From contig JBGVNN010000010.1 in the NCBI GenBank assembly GCA_045125595.1, forward strand, positions 43,879 to 107,878: a stretch of 64,000 nucleotides of DNA, read 5' to 3'. The stretch comes from Candidatus Egerieisoma sp. GTDB lineage: Bacteria > Bacillota > Clostridia > UBA1212 > UBA1255. The translations under genes were made by a program, and so were the position numbers. The number at the start of each line of letters is the position of its first letter. The stretch's first letter is position 1. The notes beneath the pieces were generated by a model that worked only from the letters and a program-made list of their open reading frames with translations, did no database searches and was not told the DNA's origin. Below, in pieces: positions 52,235 through 61,941 of the stretch.

Positions 52235-52305
52235 AAGAAATTCAACGTGATTAATATAGCATAATAATTGAATTTAAACAAGAATTGACATTTCGGAAAT
52301 TGTAT

Positions 52306-52944
52306 TTATTTATCCTCATCTGTTTTAATAATGTTTCTCAACGTAATTGATACGCATTCTTTATTATCAAAAGAATTAAAAAGAAAATAAGCACCGTTAT
52401 ACTTGTCATTTATTTCATGTTTATAATTTATTGATTCAGTAAAACTACAAGAATATTTCTCTCGACCATCGGGAGCACCAAAAGCTTTTTCAACAGTATT
52501 TTCGCCCGATTTGAGTTTTATTCCTTTTGCTATGACAAAATCATTTTGCCAATTATCGTTCACCTTAATTTCACCAATCTTGCAATCTTTGAGCATCTTA
52601 GCATTTTCGCTCATATTGTACGCCTCTACAAAAATCTTGTTGTTACCTTTAGAAAAGTGAAAATATACGTTTTTATCGTAGTGAACCATTGTATCTTCTG
52701 CAACTTCATCTAAAGAAGAAATCGACCAACCATTTTCCGTAAAATCTTTAAAATCGCACGGAAGTTGATAAACTACACCGTCAAGTTTAAAAGTGAAATC
52801 AAATAAATCATCTGACATAACAGGAGTAAATATAAAATATCTTGCAAGCAAAAACACAAGCACAGCCACAACAGCAGTAACCGCAACAGAAACAATTGCA
52901 ATTGTCACTGTTTTAAATTTTCTTTGATTAGCACATTCATCCAT
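52306..52944 (-). CDS. hypothetical membrane-anchored protein (212 aa)
   Basis: N-terminal TM VTIAIVSVAVTAVVAVLVFLL; last gene of the ECF sigma cluster. Confidence 0.5.
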   Translation of the reverse strand: MDECANQRKFKTVTIAIVSVAVTAVVAVLVFLLARYFIFTPVMSDDLFDFTFKLDGVVYQLPCDFKDFTENGWSISSLDEVAEDTMVHYDKNVYFHFSKGNNKIFVEAYNMSENAKMLKDCKIGEIKVNDNWQNDFVIAKGIKLKSGENTVEKAFGAPDGREKYSCSFTESINYKHEINDKYNGAYFLFNSFDNKECVSITLRNIIKTDEDK

Positions 52945-53158
52945 GATTACACCCTCCTTATCAAAAAGAAAAACATACCAAAAAGTAAAATTCTTAAATT
53001 GTCGTTATCTTGGTTTTATATTATCATTTCAATTGTGAAGACTCAAGGCATAACATGCAAACATTTCATGAACAATAATCTGCATTTTTCCGGCTTATTG
53101 CTGTTATCTGTGAAGGATAGGAATCAATAAATTTTTCTTATGTTAGAGCATTCTTCAT

Positions 53159-53683
53159 TTAATCATAGAAAAATTCATATTCAGGAAGTTTCTTCCATTC
53201 ATTTGTTCCTGTTAATATTTCTTCTATGCCCCTGCATACATCAAGAAATTTACGTGCTTTTTCATCGCTACTAAAGTACAGGGTATTTTCGTATACTGCT
53301 ACTTTCTTATCTATCCCTTCTGCCTTTACTGACAAAATCAAAGTTTCATACGGTGTCACCCAAATATTACGGTTTGGATCATAGACATCGGGATAGGACT
53401 CAATATCCAAATCTTCAATTAATTCCCATATTGCAGCGTACTGTTCTTCAGAAAGTTGAAGAAATGTAATATATCTATTAGGTTCGGTAGCATCTTTTGT
53501 TTTTATCAATTTTCCTGTTTTACTGTCGTACGAACTAATGCCGTAAGTATTCCATACTAAAGAGAAAGAGTAATTCGGTTCATTTTTACTTTGATTGATG
53601 ACAAATGAAACAATACTGAAAACAGCAACAAAAATGAGCGCTACCGTACAAATTATATACAAAAATCGAACATTATTTTTCAT
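53159..53683 (-). CDS. hypothetical membrane-anchored protein (start MKNNVRFLY)
   Basis: N-terminal TM, overlaps the upstream gene stop. Confidence 0.5.
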   Translation of the reverse strand: MKNNVRFLYIICTVALIFVAVFSIVSFVINQSKNEPNYSFSLVWNTYGISSYDSKTGKLIKTKDATEPNRYITFLQLSEEQYAAIWELIEDLDIESYPDVYDPNRNIWVTPYETLILSVKAEGIDKKVAVYENTLYFSSDEKARKFLDVCRGIEEILTGTNEWKKLPEYEFFYD

Positions 53684-54155
53684 TGAATATGAGCTCCTTA
53701 AGCAGGTCAATTTGTGCCTGCGTCAGTTCTGCTTGACCTTTGTCACAACGAGCATATCCCGCTGAAAAATTTATACCATAAACAATACCTAACTCGGTTT
53801 TAACATCGTATTCAGCCATACACTTGCACATTTTGTTTTTATCATATTGCAAATTTTCAAGAATATCTATCATGGTCGCAGCCGAGCTTTCTGATATAAC
53901 CATGTAAGTATTTTCATTTTTGAAATAAATGGTTGTCTGTACGTCGCTATCCGGCACTTTCTCTGTCGGTTGTTGAATAGTTGTCTGCACATCGCTATCT
54001 AACAATTCCCCGGTCGGTTGCTGACATACATCAGCAACGATCGAGGCACTATTTTCTTTATCACTCGGCATTTCCCCAAAAACCAAAACAGAGGCAGCAA
54101 CGAAAACAGCAGCAATACCTATAACGCATACCAATAAAATCCATGTTTTTTTCAT
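53673..54155 (-). CDS. hypothetical secreted/membrane-anchored protein with internal DSDVQTTI duplication
   Basis: Signal-anchor MKKTWILLVCVIGIAAVFVAA; internal repeat is also visible at DNA level. Confidence 0.5.
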   Translation of the reverse strand: MKKTWILLVCVIGIAAVFVAASVLVFGEMPSDKENSASIVADVCQQPTGELLDSDVQTTIQQPTEKVPDSDVQTTIYFKNENTYMVISESSAATMIDILENLQYDKNKMCKCMAEYDVKTELGIVYGINFSAGYARCDKGQAELTQAQIDLLKELIFNEK

Positions 54156-54177
54156 AAAACCACACCCTTTCAGTATA

Positions 54178-54747
54178 TCAGTTCAAAATCACCAAAAGCT
54201 CCTCTATTTGTTTTTTAGAAAGACGTATCCGAGTATCATTCTCCGTATTGCATAATATATTTTTTCTTAATACAAATTGAATTTCAGAACCATCTGCAGT
54301 ATTAAAACAAATTCTGTACTCTTTTTTTATGTCTATATCTAAAATTACCAAGCTGTTGCCATCATTCTTTGTCCCTGATGACTCTGAGCCATAGCTATCG
54401 CCTTTTATTGCTCCACCCTCTTGCGTATTGTTGCCCCCAAGAGAAGTTCCTGCATCTGAAGTTTTATACAAATTTAAAATCGCAGAATAGATTTCATTCA
54501 CTTTGGCGGAATCGGTAACAGTTTCGGTCCGAGCACCATTGTCATCAACACCTGTTATATCAACAGATACAAAACTATCCGTTTCCGTAGGGAACACTGC
54601 CGGCAGAATCGTCACCGACAATATGGTTAGAATAAAACAAAAAGTAATACAAACAACCAAGATGTGATTGCGCTTTGCTTTACGTTCTTTTATTCTTTCC
54701 TCACTGCGACGAAAAATTTCCGCTTTTCTTTCTTCAAAATTTTTCAT
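54178..54747 (-). CDS. putative membrane anti-sigma factor (non-ZAS): short cytoplasmic N-terminus, one TM, extracytoplasmic domain
   Basis: ATGA overlap with the upstream ECF sigma gene; topology of about 30 aa charged N-terminus plus TM; no HxxxCxxC motif. Confidence 0.5.
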   Translation of the reverse strand: MKNFEERKAEIFRRSEERIKERKAKRNHILVVCITFCFILTILSVTILPAVFPTETDSFVSVDITGVDDNGARTETVTDSAKVNEIYSAILNLYKTSDAGTSLGGNNTQEGGAIKGDSYGSESSGTKNDGNSLVILDIDIKKEYRICFNTADGSEIQFVLRKNILCNTENDTRIRLSKKQIEELLVILN

Positions 54748-55337
54748 AATAACAGCTCACCATCCTCTCCAAGAATGATGCGAAGTTCCTTTTTAGCACG
54801 ATATAAAAGATTGTCTATCTGTTTGTGATTTTTCTTCATAACCCTCGCTGCCTCTTTATAAGACAAATTTTCAAAATAAACTAAGTGTATGACAATACGC
54901 ATATCATCCGAAAGTAAGCAAAGGGCATTGTTTATTACTCGTTTCCGCTCGTCTGTAAGAACAGTTTCTTCAAGTGTTTCCTCCTCCGGAAACGCATTGT
55001 CGGCTTCTTCGAGTTCTACTAAATCAATAACCTTACGGTGTTTTATGTAGTTTAAAGCGCGACTCCGTCCGAGCATAAACAGATAAGTTTTCAATGTAAC
55101 CTTGAAATTATACCGATGCTTATTAACTATCAAATCTGAAAAAGCATCAATAGCAATATCTTCGGCTGCGTGTATATCATGCACATAACGATTAATAAAG
55201 AACACAAGATTATCAAACAATTCTTTCATTATATCGTCAAAGGCACTCTCGTCACCATCAAGGAAACGGCGGTAGCTACTTGCACCGTTGTCCATATGGT
55301 TTCCTCCTAATTTCCGGAGCATACTCGTCTCCTTCAC
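54744..55337 (-). CDS. ECF-subfamily RNA polymerase sigma-70 factor
   Basis: Region 2 (...FDNLVFFINRYVHDIHAAEDIAIDAFSDLI...) and region 4 (LSYKEAARVMKKNHKQIDNLLYRAKKELR). Confidence 0.8.
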   Translation of the reverse strand: MKETSMLRKLGGNHMDNGASSYRRFLDGDESAFDDIMKELFDNLVFFINRYVHDIHAAEDIAIDAFSDLIVNKHRYNFKVTLKTYLFMLGRSRALNYIKHRKVIDLVELEEADNAFPEEETLEETVLTDERKRVINNALCLLSDDMRIVIHLVYFENLSYKEAARVMKKNHKQIDNLLYRAKKELRIILGEDGELLL

Positions 55338-55382
55338 CTATTATACAACTAAGCAGACCTGATATCCTTATATTAAAATAAA

Positions 55383-57876: not shown

Positions 57877-58905
57877 TCAAAGTTTATCAGCTATATCAAG
57901 AATAAGTCTTTCGGTCTTTTCCCAACCAAGACAAGGATCTGTTATTGATTTGCCAAAAATATGCTCGCCCATGCTTTGAGCACCATCCTCAATGTAACTT
58001 TCAATCATCAATCCCTTAACAAGACGTTTGATAACTGAATTTTCATTGCGGCTGTGAACAATATCCTTTGCAATACGAATTTGTTCAAGATACTGTTTAC
58101 CTGAATTGTTATGATTTGTATCTACTATTACAGACGGATTTACCAGATTCGATTGCTCATAAAGCTCTTCTACTCTCAAAAGATCCTCATAATGATAATT
58201 TGAAGTACTTCTTCCCGCATAATCAATATAGCCGCGAAGTATGGCATGTGTACATGGATTGCCCTCGCTCGTAACCTCCCAGCCTCTGTAAATAAAAGTG
58301 TGACTTGACTGCGCTGCAACTATAGAGTTCATCATAACGCTAAGGTCTCCACTCGTAGGATTCTTCATTCCCACAGGTACGCTGATTCCGCTTGCTGTGA
58401 GTCGGTGTTGTTGATTTTCTACGGAACGTGCGCCAATCGCAACATACGCAAGCAAGTCGGAAAGGTAGTGGTAATTTTCCGGATAGAGCATTTCGTCGGC
58501 ACACGAGAAACCGTAATCTCGCAATGCCGCCAAATGCAGCTCTCGAATCGAAACAAGACCTTTATACATGTCCGGTTTAGCCTCTGGATCAGGTTGATGC
58601 AACATACCTTTGTATCCTTGCCCGGTAGTTCTCGGTTTATTTGTGTAAACCCTCGGAATAATAACTATTTTATCTGATACTTGTTCTTCAATTCTGCGAA
58701 GCCTTGAAATATATTCAAGCACCGGTTCACTATGGTCTGCGGAGCATGGTCCGATTATAAGAATAAATTTATCTGAGTGGCCATCAAAAACAGCTTTGAT
58801 ACTCTCGTCACGCTCTGCTTTAATTTTTCTCATTTTTTCTGTCAATGGATATTCTCCCATGACTTCTTCCGGTAACGGAAGTCTCCTATGAAAATTCATT
58901 CTCAT
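57877..58905 (-). CDS. aroG: 3-deoxy-7-phosphoheptulonate (DAHP) synthase class I-alpha; start at MRMNFHRR, ORF-track extension to 59013 runs through the T-box leader
   Basis: GPCS, KPRTT, AIGARSVENQ and SITDPCLGWE motifs match AroG/AroF. Confidence 0.85.
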   Translation of the reverse strand: MRMNFHRRLPLPEEVMGEYPLTEKMRKIKAERDESIKAVFDGHSDKFILIIGPCSADHSEPVLEYISRLRRIEEQVSDKIVIIPRVYTNKPRTTGQGYKGMLHQPDPEAKPDMYKGLVSIRELHLAALRDYGFSCADEMLYPENYHYLSDLLAYVAIGARSVENQQHRLTASGISVPVGMKNPTSGDLSVMMNSIVAAQSSHTFIYRGWEVTSEGNPCTHAILRGYIDYAGRSTSNYHYEDLLRVEELYEQSNLVNPSVIVDTNHNNSGKQYLEQIRIAKDIVHSRNENSVIKRLVKGLMIESYIEDGAQSMGEHIFGKSITDPCLGWEKTERLILDIADKL

Positions 58906-58984
58906 TAAAAAACACCCTTTCTTTTTGTCAGATACAATACTTTCGAATTGTGGAAGGGTAAACAAAAACGCCCTCCGCATTCCG

Positions 58985-59265
58985 ATAAAGAATACAGAGG
59001 ACGAGAAAATCAATAATCCCGTGGTACCACCTCAGTTCGTCGCTACCTCACGATAGTGACCTTTTCAAGTACTAACATACCTTAGTTCTATAACGGGAAC
59101 GCCCGTTGCCTCCTACTAAAGATTTTTATCTTATTCAGTGCACTGCTAGCAGAATGAATTCAGAAGGGCGTCCGCTTTGCCTCGCACCAACCGGCAACTC
59201 TCTCAAGATTCTTCCCAACCTACTGGTTTCTGATCTTCGCATTTAGTGTTACAACATATTTAATT
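58985..59265 (-). promoter_or_regulatory. T-box riboswitch leader, probable Phe (UUC) specifier
   Basis: Minus-strand leader contains AGAGAG box (59198-59204), distal hairpin ttgcc-ggttggtgcga-ggcaa, specifier-loop candidate GAA-UUC-A (about 59155-59162) and the conserved T-box sequence aactGAGGTGGTACCACGGG (59018-59037). Confidence 0.65.
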
Positions 59266-59300: not shown

Positions 59301-60206
59301 TCAAGACTTTATTTTAATCTCTGTACCTCCCCATTCGACTACGGTGAATCCTTTGCGCTCCGGTGCAGTAAACTCTTGTTGCGGTATTTCTACAAACTCA
59401 TCTGACTTTTGCCAAGCCATAAATACACGGATCAAAGTGTCGGGTGCAGGCGTGACATCGAGCTGTGCCGCATCTGTATATATTTCACCTTGAAAAGAAA
59501 TGATGTTATATGGATTTTGCTCCATGAGAGGCAACCAATAAACAATAAATTCATTGGCTTCGCGGCGCGTAAGTCCGAGTTTATCGAGCGCCGCCTCAAG
59601 AAAGGTTGCGGTGTTCTCTCCTTTTATACAAAAACCTTTGGAGAGATCATACTGTGCAAAAGTTTCTCCTTCCCAATAAAGATAATTATATGTTTTTCCT
59701 TTATTGTCAATTAAAGTGCCGTCCGGGAAAGCCGTAACTTCCCACCCTTTTCCGTATTTGGGGTATGTGCAAGTCAATCTGCCGTCGAGCATGAGACTGA
59801 CGGAAACTTGCGTTTCTTTTTCGGGGTAGAGATAAATAACAGGTTTGTAGTCTTTGAGAGAATCATCCTGTTCACAGTCGCTTGCTTTTTCCCAGCTTAT
59901 TGCTGTTATCTGTGCGGGATAGGACAACATAACATAGCCGCTGTATGTTATTTGTACCACATCACCCACTTTAGCGCCTATTTTTTCTAATTTTGTGATA
60001 TTAAAGGAAATTTTGGCATTGTTTGTTCTTTCGGGTTCACCCTCGATAGGTTCAACCAAAACAGAAGTGTCATTTATTTCTATAACTTTAGCGTAAAATG
60101 TCTGTTCATTATTATCTTTCTTAATAAAGAAAAACAACACAATCAATAATACAGCAAGCAACGCGACAACTATAGTAATAGGTATCCAAATTTTCTTTTT
60201 CAGCAT
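59301..60206 (-). CDS. hypothetical membrane-anchored protein (301 aa)
   Basis: N-terminal TM IPITIVVALLAVLLIVLFFFI, two beta-rich extracytoplasmic domains; a remnant paralog copy lies at 53060-53128. Confidence 0.55.
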   Translation of the reverse strand: MLKKKIWIPITIVVALLAVLLIVLFFFIKKDNNEQTFYAKVIEINDTSVLVEPIEGEPERTNNAKISFNITKLEKIGAKVGDVVQITYSGYVMLSYPAQITAISWEKASDCEQDDSLKDYKPVIYLYPEKETQVSVSLMLDGRLTCTYPKYGKGWEVTAFPDGTLIDNKGKTYNYLYWEGETFAQYDLSKGFCIKGENTATFLEAALDKLGLTRREANEFIVYWLPLMEQNPYNIISFQGEIYTDAAQLDVTPAPDTLIRVFMAWQKSDEFVEIPQQEFTAPERKGFTVVEWGGTEIKIKS

Positions 60207-60295
60207 AAGTAAACCTCCTATTCACCTATTATACAATCAACCGGCTGTATGTTCCTTATGGATATATTTTTCAAGGTCTAATATTGTTCTTTCAA

Positions 60296-60895
60296 TCAAT
60301 ATCCAACAAATTTCTTTAGCACTTCTTCTCTGTTATACTCATAAACCAAAAAGTGTTTTTCTTTTTTAGCCAGTTCCCTATTTTCGGTAGAATCTGCATC
60401 GAATAAAACAATGGCATTGTCACAAATTTTATATCCTGCAAGTTCATTTGCTTCGGCAATTTCCGTTTGCAAATAATCCTCAAGTGACATTATAACTCTT
60501 TTTTCCGTACCATCGTCACCTTCCTTATCACACGAATACACCCATTTTTCACTTTCGGTATCATATTCAAGAGGAAAAGCTTCCGGAATTATAAGTATAT
60601 TATCAAAAACAAACCAGCCGCATTCCAACGAATCGTTAGTAGGATTAAAAATATATTTTATCGGCAGATTGTTTTTAGCAATTTCGTTATATAAATCAAA
60701 ATATATACCGCTGCCTGCAAAAAGTTTATACTTTTTATGTTCGGTTTTATAAAAATAAGAACGCTTATATTTAATATAATCAAACGGCAACATAAAAACA
60801 AAGCATATTCCAAGAATCAGCAAAAGAAACACACATAAGAGTGTTAAGAAAAATTTCCCGATTTTGCTTAATATTTTTTTCATGTGTTTCATCAC
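60296..60895 (-). CDS. hypothetical membrane-anchored protein (199 aa)
   Basis: N-terminal TM; no motif. Confidence 0.45.
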   Translation of the reverse strand: MMKHMKKILSKIGKFFLTLLCVFLLLILGICFVFMLPFDYIKYKRSYFYKTEHKKYKLFAGSGIYFDLYNEIAKNNLPIKYIFNPTNDSLECGWFVFDNILIIPEAFPLEYDTESEKWVYSCDKEGDDGTEKRVIMSLEDYLQTEIAEANELAGYKICDNAIVLFDADSTENRELAKKEKHFLVYEYNREEVLKKFVGY

Positions 60896-61008: not shown

Positions 61009-61941
61009 CTATTTAAGTACGTCATCAAATAGTTCTCGAACCCGTTCCCAATCAACACCGTTTTTCGCACGCCAAAATCTTACAGGGTATCCATAATCAT
61101 TTCTATGTTCATCAGGTTCTCTCATATCTTTAGTTCGAATAAAATATTTCGTCACTCCGCGACATTCGTCTGAATGCAAGATATCTAAATATCCTAAAAT
61201 GTCTAAATATGCCTTATACTCTCTTGATTTGAACGCAAGAAGTTTGCTTTTTTGCAAAATTTCCTTATAAGCCCCTATCTTTTTTTCACTCTGCAATTGC
61301 TCTGTAAGCATCAACGAATCTACAAAAAGCTGATAATCTTCTTTTGTTGCTATTACCTTCGGCATCTTTATAAATTCACGTAATAAAAAAGAAGAAGTTG
61401 TCAGATTTTGCCCCCAAGGATAACCGCCTTCATAGATTCGGCAATATTGCATATAGTTTATCCACATAAAACTCATTTTAGTTTCAACAGATGCAGCACA
61501 GTAATCACAAAAATCACAGTATGGCGATGTATGTAAATCATCGGGGCGTAAATAGTCTTCACTATGTTCAGGAATATTCTTTATGTGTAAAAAAGCAGGC
61601 AAAGCGGTTCTGTAAGCAGGGATTCCCCTTGAGACTCCGTAAATAAATGCGTGAACAACATCTTTGTAAGATACATTTTCAACACGTTGTCTTGCGATTT
61701 TGTTTGCCTCTGTATGTTCAAAAACTTCTTCTCCTAAAAACATGGTTCCTTCCGCAACCGCGGGCAAATATTTTCCAACCGAGTTCGGCCAAAAATTTTT
61801 TCCAAAATCATTAGAATCACATTGAAATTCCCTAAGCAATTTCAATGCAGAGCCATGATCGCAAGCAGGTATATGGTCCTTATAAAATTGTATTACTTCA
61901 TCATCAAATTGTTTGTTAATCATCTCACTGTAATCTGACAT
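61009..61941 (-). CDS. hypothetical cytoplasmic protein, Cys/His-rich (CDHG, CDFCDYC)
   Basis: 310 aa ORF, tightly spaced after upstream gene. Confidence 0.5.
   Translation of the reverse strand: MSDYSEMINKQFDDEVIQFYKDHIPACDHGSALKLLREFQCDSNDFGKNFWPNSVGKYLPAVAEGTMFLGEEVFEHTEANKIARQRVENVSYKDVVHAFIYGVSRGIPAYRTALPAFLHIKNIPEHSEDYLRPDDLHTSPYCDFCDYCAASVETKMSFMWINYMQYCRIYEGGYPWGQNLTTSSFLLREFIKMPKVIATKEDYQLFVDSLMLTEQLQSEKKIGAYKEILQKSKLLAFKSREYKAYLDILGYLDILHSDECRGVTKYFIRTKDMREPDEHRNDYGYPVRFWRAKNGVDWERVRELFDDVLK

Follow-up and report, generated by a model that had tools for sequence, protein, structure and literature searches.

The σ-binding domains of structurally defined anti-σ factors are made of four helices in class I, two in class II and three in class III (PMC6101532). 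SigW/RsiW, from Bacillus subtilis, and RpoE/RseA, from Escherichia coli, are examples of the first class, where the anti-σ factor undergoes regulated intramembrane proteolysis, and CnrH/CnrY/CnrX, from Cupriavidus metallidurans, is a two-helix example of the second. Here, these and other extracytoplasmic function (ECF) systems are compared with a locus from Candidatus Egerieisoma sp., found on a stretch of 64,000 nt (contig JBGVNN010000010.1, positions 43,879 to 107,878 of the forward strand; the whole stretch is called the window in what follows), in which the genes for an ECF σ factor, a candidate anti-σ factor (P2) and two signal-anchored proteins (P3 and P4) follow each other on the minus strand. 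The locus is likely to be a member of a conserved, widespread and so far undescribed family of ECF σ/anti-σ signalling systems from gut and rumen Clostridia, in which P2 would be the σ-binding partner. In the best-supported model, the module is a genuine σ/anti-σ pair that would be distinguished by three unusual features: a σ-binding module of a single helix, modular ectodomains and accessory proteins, and a regulon of which one part is the operon itself and the other an unlinked gene, X301. The comparison behind this model was obtained by scanning the σ alignment against one genome per species, which gave 144 relatives, and by examining 80 of their loci; according to their record titles, nearly all belong to gut or rumen Clostridia (Acutalibacteraceae, Oscillospiraceae, Lachnospiraceae and Eubacteriales), with one representative from the Paludibacteraceae.

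The identification of the σ factor, already proposed in an initial annotation of this DNA, is supported by the general σ profile and by those of both σ regions, all scoring above their cut-offs (TIGR02937, 78.4 bits with a cut-off of 42.9; Sigma70_r2, PF04542, 24.3 with 24; Sigma70_r4_2, PF08281, 34.4 with 25.7). Its 183 residues contain the σ2 and σ4 domains only, which defines it as an ECF (group 4) σ factor, and the best match to an NCBIfam subfamily, TIGR02985, reaches 90.7 bits and stays under the cut-off of 126.4. The gene most likely starts at the ATG at 55295, with an AGGAGG 7 nt upstream, and not at the GTG at 55337 that was first assigned. The σ orthologues from the 80 loci, 67-87% identical, are 176-183 residues long (almost all of them 181-183) and nearly all begin with MDNG, and the GTG lies only 4 nt downstream of a conserved -10 element (55341-55346), that is, at or upstream of the probable start of transcription.

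Directly behind the σ gene, about 70 of 74 related loci encode a P2 homologue, and the 4-bp ATGA overlap by which the two genes are joined in the window recurs in 59 of the 74, in agreement with the translational coupling suggested initially. The N-terminal motif M(K/R)x(F/L)xE..AE(I/V)FRRSE.RIKERK, followed by one transmembrane (TM) segment, is likewise shared by about 70 of these loci. Residues 1-27 are near-invariant, basic (11 Lys or Arg) and amphipathic (hydrophobic moment, muH, of 0.49), with a positive-inside topology, and the ectodomain is only about 30% identical across relatives, or else swapped for another domain. It is this combination, a near-invariant cytoplasmic segment of 27 residues joined to exchangeable ectodomains and encoded right behind the σ factor, that leads to the reading of P2 as an anti-σ factor. 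Hence, comparative genomics makes a strong candidate out of what had been noted as a single-TM protein without the HxxxCxxC zinc motif (ZAS): P2 is very probably the anti-σ factor of the adjoining ECF, to which it would bind. The zinc motif is indeed missing, with no His or Cys in residues 1-27 as read from the sequence, and no Pfam or NCBIfam family matches P2 at E<=1, class I families such as zf-HC2, RskA, DUF4179 and RsgI_N included.

The promoter that this σ factor would use can be described with some precision. In 80 of 81 loci, the σ ATG is preceded, at a distance of about 45 nt, by the motif ATAAGGAA(T)-N~15-(T/C)GTATAAT(AAGTGAA), whose core pattern, AAGGA-N17/18-GTATAA, stands at a fixed distance from the gene (again in 80 of 81) and whose -10 element, TCGTATAA in many of the loci, takes the form TTGTATAA in the window. 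This differs from the AAC-N17-CGT type that had been anticipated, the observed form being AAGGAA(T)-N~15-(T/C)GTATAAT. Elsewhere in the approximately 2 Mb of sequence flanking the related loci the motif is absent, with the exception of a copy that in L068 stands beside a small unannotated open reading frame (ORF), about 280 nt ahead of the σ gene. The core pattern occurs at exactly 2 sites in the window, compared with 0.14 expected, and none of 100 shuffled versions reaches 2. One site precedes the σ gene, as expected of an autoregulated ECF, and the other lies 23 nt upstream of the X301 ORF, at a distance of 5 kb from the locus. A position weight matrix (PWM) trained on 62 other loci only, with the window sites left out, gives both of them high scores (Table 1), the next-best site in the window reaching 7.8 bits and the shuffle maximum being 19.5. 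Upstream of position 52944, the other place for which the initial annotation had considered such a promoter, neither the core-pattern nor the PWM scan of the window found one. Given the second site and its strong score, X301 is a predicted unlinked member of the regulon, and both promoters would be served by the σ factor of the window. A metagenome-wide scan for other unlinked regulon genes returned at least 120 matches, mostly attributable to chance, with 6 σ operons among the matches listed.

Some further observations concern the promoter and the leader. The same promoter pattern is found upstream of a distant σ relative (L107, metagenome contig JABLTQ010078073.1; 48% identity), and its specificity may therefore reach beyond the closely related σ subfamily. 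In some metagenome-assembled genomes the whole system is present as two paralogues (L007 and L063 in JAZSHI01; L010 and L019 in JAXJQX01), whose σ factors are about 76-87% identical to that of the window and whose promoter motif is identical; cross-talk at the promoter level is thus likely, and specificity would have to reside in the anti-σ or sensor parts. In most related loci, the 5' untranslated region of the σ gene opens with a GC-rich hairpin, located between the -10 element and the ribosome-binding site, after GTGAA, and typically reading GGGTCAGACGTGACCC, with compensatory stem changes between loci and an often conserved AGACGT loop. The copy in the window (55316-55332, minus strand) has only a weak 4-bp stem (GGAG...CTCC). 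This hairpin could stabilise the mRNA or act as a regulatory element; the Rfam scan gave no match in the operon or its leader.

What would the released σ factor produce, apart from its own operon? The initial annotation saw no recognisable output, a view that neither the relatives nor X301, as a predicted output, support. The operon-terminal gene of the relatives encodes either a serpin (PF00079, E 1e-81; 28 loci) or a protein here called X (27 loci), and never both. X is signal-anchored and 272-495 residues long, most often about 435. No serpin was matched by tblastn in the 64 kb of the window, and it is the X family that is represented there, by X301, which is composed of a TM anchor, a putative YobA/DUF3221-like OB domain and a conserved C-terminal domain of 180 residues. 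The X domain is abundant, with 7239 clusters at 50% identity and no Pfam family of its own, and displays three invariant Glu and many invariant Tyr and Trp residues; a Foldseek comparison of the X model with the PDB gave generic OB-fold matches only. The gene remnant that had been noticed in the gap behind P4 could be identified as a 30-nt vestige of X. It shares 28 of its 30 nt with nt 283-312 of X301, in the same strand and frame (codons 95-104, SYPSQITAIS versus SYPAQITAIS; blastn-short E 1e-8). The vestige is evident only at the DNA level: tblastn searches of the gap between P4 and P5 for a serpin or X remnant were negative, and the X profile matched weakly (E 0.06). In the closest relatives, L007 and L014, an X gene directly follows a fused P3+P4 gene. 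This retained order, together with the remnant, points to an ancestral operon of the form σ-P2-P3-P4-X, whose X copy would since have been deleted.

Table 1. Features of the σ/anti-σ locus and of X301 (window positions)
Feature	Position	Strand	Remarks
ECF (group 4) σ factor, 183 residues	54744..55295	-	TIGR02937 and Pfam matches; orthologues
P2, candidate anti-σ factor	54178..54747	-	27-residue cytoplasmic N-terminus (MKNFEERKAEIFRRSEERIKERKAKRN), one TM segment (~28-52), variable ectodomain
P3, signal-anchored protein	53673..54155	-	C-terminal CxC...C domain (~70-157), found in 18 related loci
P4, signal-anchored protein	53159..53683	-	alpha/beta platform domain; predicted Mago-nashi-like fold
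X-family gene remnant	53093..53122	-	shares 28 of 30 nt with nt 283-312 of X301
P5, orphan signal-anchored protein	52306..52944	-	behind a 214-nt gap; absent from related loci
Autoregulatory σ-type promoter, AAGGA-N18-GTATAA	55341..55369	-	upstream of σ; full sequence TATAAGGATATCAGGTCTGCTTAGTTGTATAATAGGTGAA; PWM 44.5 bits
Second σ-type promoter	60229..60257	-	CATAAGGAACATACAGCCGGTTGATTGTATAATAGGTGAA; upstream of X301; PWM 36.3 bits
X301, predicted unlinked regulon member	59301..60206	-	full-length X homologue with σ-type promoter upstream

The surroundings of X301 contain a T-box leader (RF00230, 104 bits with a gathering cut-off of 93) at 58994-59246 on the minus strand, just downstream of the gene. 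It is the sole match of the Rfam scan, further upstream than the σ operon, and it is followed by a gene (57877-59013) that, from its sequence and without a family search, we take to encode a DAHP-synthase-like protein. Two ORFs without a family match immediately precede the X301 promoter on its own strand, one at 60296-60895, encoding a membrane protein of 199 residues, and the other at 61009-61941. A PHROGs search had no matches.

P3 and P4, whose genes overlap (P4, with its start at 53683, overlaps the P3 stop), owe their proposed role to the way their domains are recombined in the relatives. The CxC...C domain of P3 has homologues in 18 loci, with 38-62% identity in the alignment, either standalone, joined to P4, joined to the anti-σ N-terminus (L031) or joined to X (L042 and L047). 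A fusion of the P4 domain to the anti-σ N-terminus occurs in about 17 loci and, among database protein clusters, in 38 of 111; in the related loci it is invariably accompanied by the serpin. Otherwise, the P4 domain is found in a lipoprotein, in a signal-anchored protein or joined to P3. Because both are fused to the anti-σ N-terminus in relatives, P3 and P4 are placed on the sensing side of the system, where they seem to have a sensory or accessory function and not that of effectors. A fold like that of Mago nashi, a family with an antiparallel sheet backed by two helices, is predicted for the P4 domain by a model built on database homologues. P3 has no match in Pfam or NCBIfam; the only one for P4 is DUF6438 (PF20033), with 19.4 bits under a gathering cut-off of 30. 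Among PDB sequences, neither the profiles for P3, P4 and X nor the P5 sequence found a meaningful match. A paralogy of the P2, P3 and P4 ectodomains, hinted at by a shared 'LT..Q...L' ending, was discarded, as neither BLASTP nor hhalign (probabilities of 1-7%) detected any relationship between them. Another extracytoplasmic module, absent from the window, is encoded by the recurrent u359/u520 genes (e.g., L010:10046-11608, L034:6382-7461 and L053:7463-8134), which many loci contain between the anti-σ gene and X. It consists of a Big_14 Ig-like domain and a second domain with the pattern FGVCGTGLEEKxITxGxY...ADxWW, and in L053 a module of this type is joined to the anti-σ N-terminus.

Put together, these elements suggest the following mechanism. 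The 27-residue amphipathic helix at the N-terminus of P2 would tether the σ factor at the membrane, and the P2 ectodomain, with the separately anchored P3 and P4, would form the extracytoplasmic sensing or accessory part, as judged from the gene fusions in relatives. An envelope signal would then inactivate P2, the most likely route being the regulated proteolysis known from other single-pass anti-σ factors, and the σ factor so released would transcribe its own operon and the unlinked X301 from the two sites observed.

Several points weigh against this account. The cytoplasmic segment of P2, with its 27 residues, has room for a single helix and is shorter than any structurally defined anti-σ domain (PMC6101532). 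The -10 element carries a perfect TATAAT, so that the housekeeping σ factor could also read these promoters, and given the paralogous σ operons with the same motif (L007/L063 and L010/L019), a paralogue encoded outside the window could drive X301. Without a detected terminator between P4 and P5, read-through into P5 is possible, and in a window without a serpin the idea about the signal that is discussed next is drawn from relatives only.

As for the signal itself, the hypothesis that we favour, speculative and held only tentatively, is an attack on the ectodomains by extracellular proteases of host or microbial origin. The guess comes from the serpin being the alternative cargo in relatives and from the protease-inducible expression of bifidobacterial serpins, which, as cited in PMC8201313, is controlled by a two-component system. 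Extended to the whole family, and with less confidence still, the idea would give a protease-sensing circuit in which a one-helix anti-σ module, a new structural class, carries interchangeable ectodomains (P2c, P3 and the Mago-like P4) as bait or receptor for serine proteases of host or microbial origin; their cleavage would free the σ factor to produce the serpin or, in lineages lacking it, such as that of the window, X as an alternative countermeasure. Alternatively, the system could respond to a general envelope insult (cell-wall antibiotics, lysozyme, bile or membrane stress), with serpin and X as two among several protective surface proteins. This serious alternative, if less likely than not, would be in line with most of the characterised ECF systems from Firmicutes (SigW, SigM, SigV and SigX), which respond to envelope damage. 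The serpin-less variant in the window also speaks for it, as do the invariant Glu and Tyr/Trp residues of X, which would fit a wall protein that binds or acts on glycans. However, the serpin is terminal in 28 of the 55 loci with a terminal cargo and invariably accompanies the fusion of P4 to the anti-σ N-terminus, which argues for proteolysis stress at least in that branch, and no genes for wall synthesis, efflux or detoxification are conserved in the operons.

Quite unlikely is the view of the initial annotation, in which a five-gene envelope-stress operon would deliver P3, P4 and P5 as novel effectors and have no further output. All five minus-strand ORFs were found in the ORF list of the window with the ends originally given, the co-conservation of P3 and P4 with the σ factor fits such an operon, and no terminator-like site was detected between P4 and P5. 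Nonetheless, in relatives the P3 and P4 domains serve as the ectodomain of the anti-σ factor itself, the operons terminate in a serpin or X, and a second σ-type promoter exists in the window, at X301. The tight linkage claimed for the five-gene unit fails for P5, which lies beyond the gap and of which none of the 80 loci contains a homologue. P5 has no match in Pfam or NCBIfam either, and its relatives amount to two related clusters at 90% identity in 5.8 billion sequences. The relative at 67% identity shares with P5 the downstream HAD hydrolase gene and, upstream, an extended -10-like element, ATGATA(A/G)TATAA. Because of this conserved promoter-like element of its own and of its absence from related loci, P5 is placed outside the σ system, probably as part of the neighbouring block. 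Ahead of the 67% relative, a terminator-like hairpin can be read in the aligned sequence, where no terminator scan was run. The HAD hydrolase gene downstream of P5 in turn appears to be preceded by an extended -10-like element (TGCTATATT, within 52235-52305, minus strand), recognised by eye and without support from a scan; this would fit with P5 and the HAD gene each forming a small transcription unit of its own. What the initial annotation observed is largely right, and its interpretation needs correction in three respects, namely the part played by P3 and P4, the membership of P5 and the supposed absence of outputs.

The least probable alternative, that P2 is just a membrane protein of the regulon, co-transcribed with a σ factor governed by transcription alone, could appeal to the lack of similarity with any anti-σ domain family and to the brevity of the cytoplasmic part, but it is hard to reconcile with a family in which those 27 residues alone equal the σ factor in conservation, the remainder being exchanged freely, and in which the 4-bp coupling right behind σ is near-universal, a pattern expected of a σ-binding module and without other obvious explanation.

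Serpins of gut bacteria, among them the siropins, act as inhibitors of human elastase-type proteases and are studied in the context of inflammatory bowel disease. In at least 28 species-level genomes, the family described here connects serpins with a dedicated ECF switch, and its precise promoter motif makes the regulon predictable. The comparison also defines several building blocks that lacked annotation: a putative minimal σ-binding module, the P3 domain with its CxC...C pattern, a predicted Mago-like platform from bacteria (P4) and the X domain, which has no PDB neighbour. In the window itself, a set of five uncharacterised membrane proteins is recast as a proposed sensor module, and a single output gene is predicted beyond the coordinates first given. 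Neither a link between ECFs and serpins nor a regulator of serpins from Clostridia was found in the literature searched, whose coverage was incomplete, and serpins go unmentioned in the main text of PMC7826278.

How does this module relate to the known systems? With SigW/RsiW and RpoE/RseA it shares the order of an ECF gene followed by the co-transcribed gene of a single-pass, N-in anti-σ factor (here the candidate P2), as well as the autoregulated ECF-type promoter. Unlike RsiW and RseA, P2 has neither a class I domain nor a zinc motif, and its cytoplasmic part comprises 27 residues compared with about 80-90 in those anti-σ factors. A very short cytoplasmic segment, in P2 a putative σ-binding one, is shared with CnrH/CnrY/CnrX, and the separately encoded, membrane-anchored extracytoplasmic partners P3 and P4 are comparable to the periplasmic sensor CnrX; there is, however, no sequence similarity, P2 would have one helix only, Cnr senses metals, and the present systems come from Firmicutes and not from Proteobacteria. 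SigI/RsgI, from cellulolytic Clostridia, resembles the architecture proposed here in combining a conserved N-terminal σ-binding module and a TM segment with interchangeable ectodomains, in several paralogues per genome, but here the σ factor is a canonical σ2/σ4 ECF, no RsgI_N match exists and the ectodomains are not carbohydrate-binding modules. A concept would be shared with SigV/RsiV, from Firmicutes, where the ectodomain of the anti-σ factor is a receptor for lysozyme and the sensing of a host enzyme thus leads to a countermeasure; RsiV, for its part, has a DUF4179-type domain and a different ectodomain, and the output is peptidoglycan modification instead of a serpin or X. Lastly, the protease-inducible serpin operon of Bifidobacterium breve, as cited in PMC8201313, likewise places the serpin of a gut commensal under dedicated envelope signalling, although its regulator is a histidine kinase with a response regulator and not an ECF pair, in another phylum and with a serpin that the window does not have.

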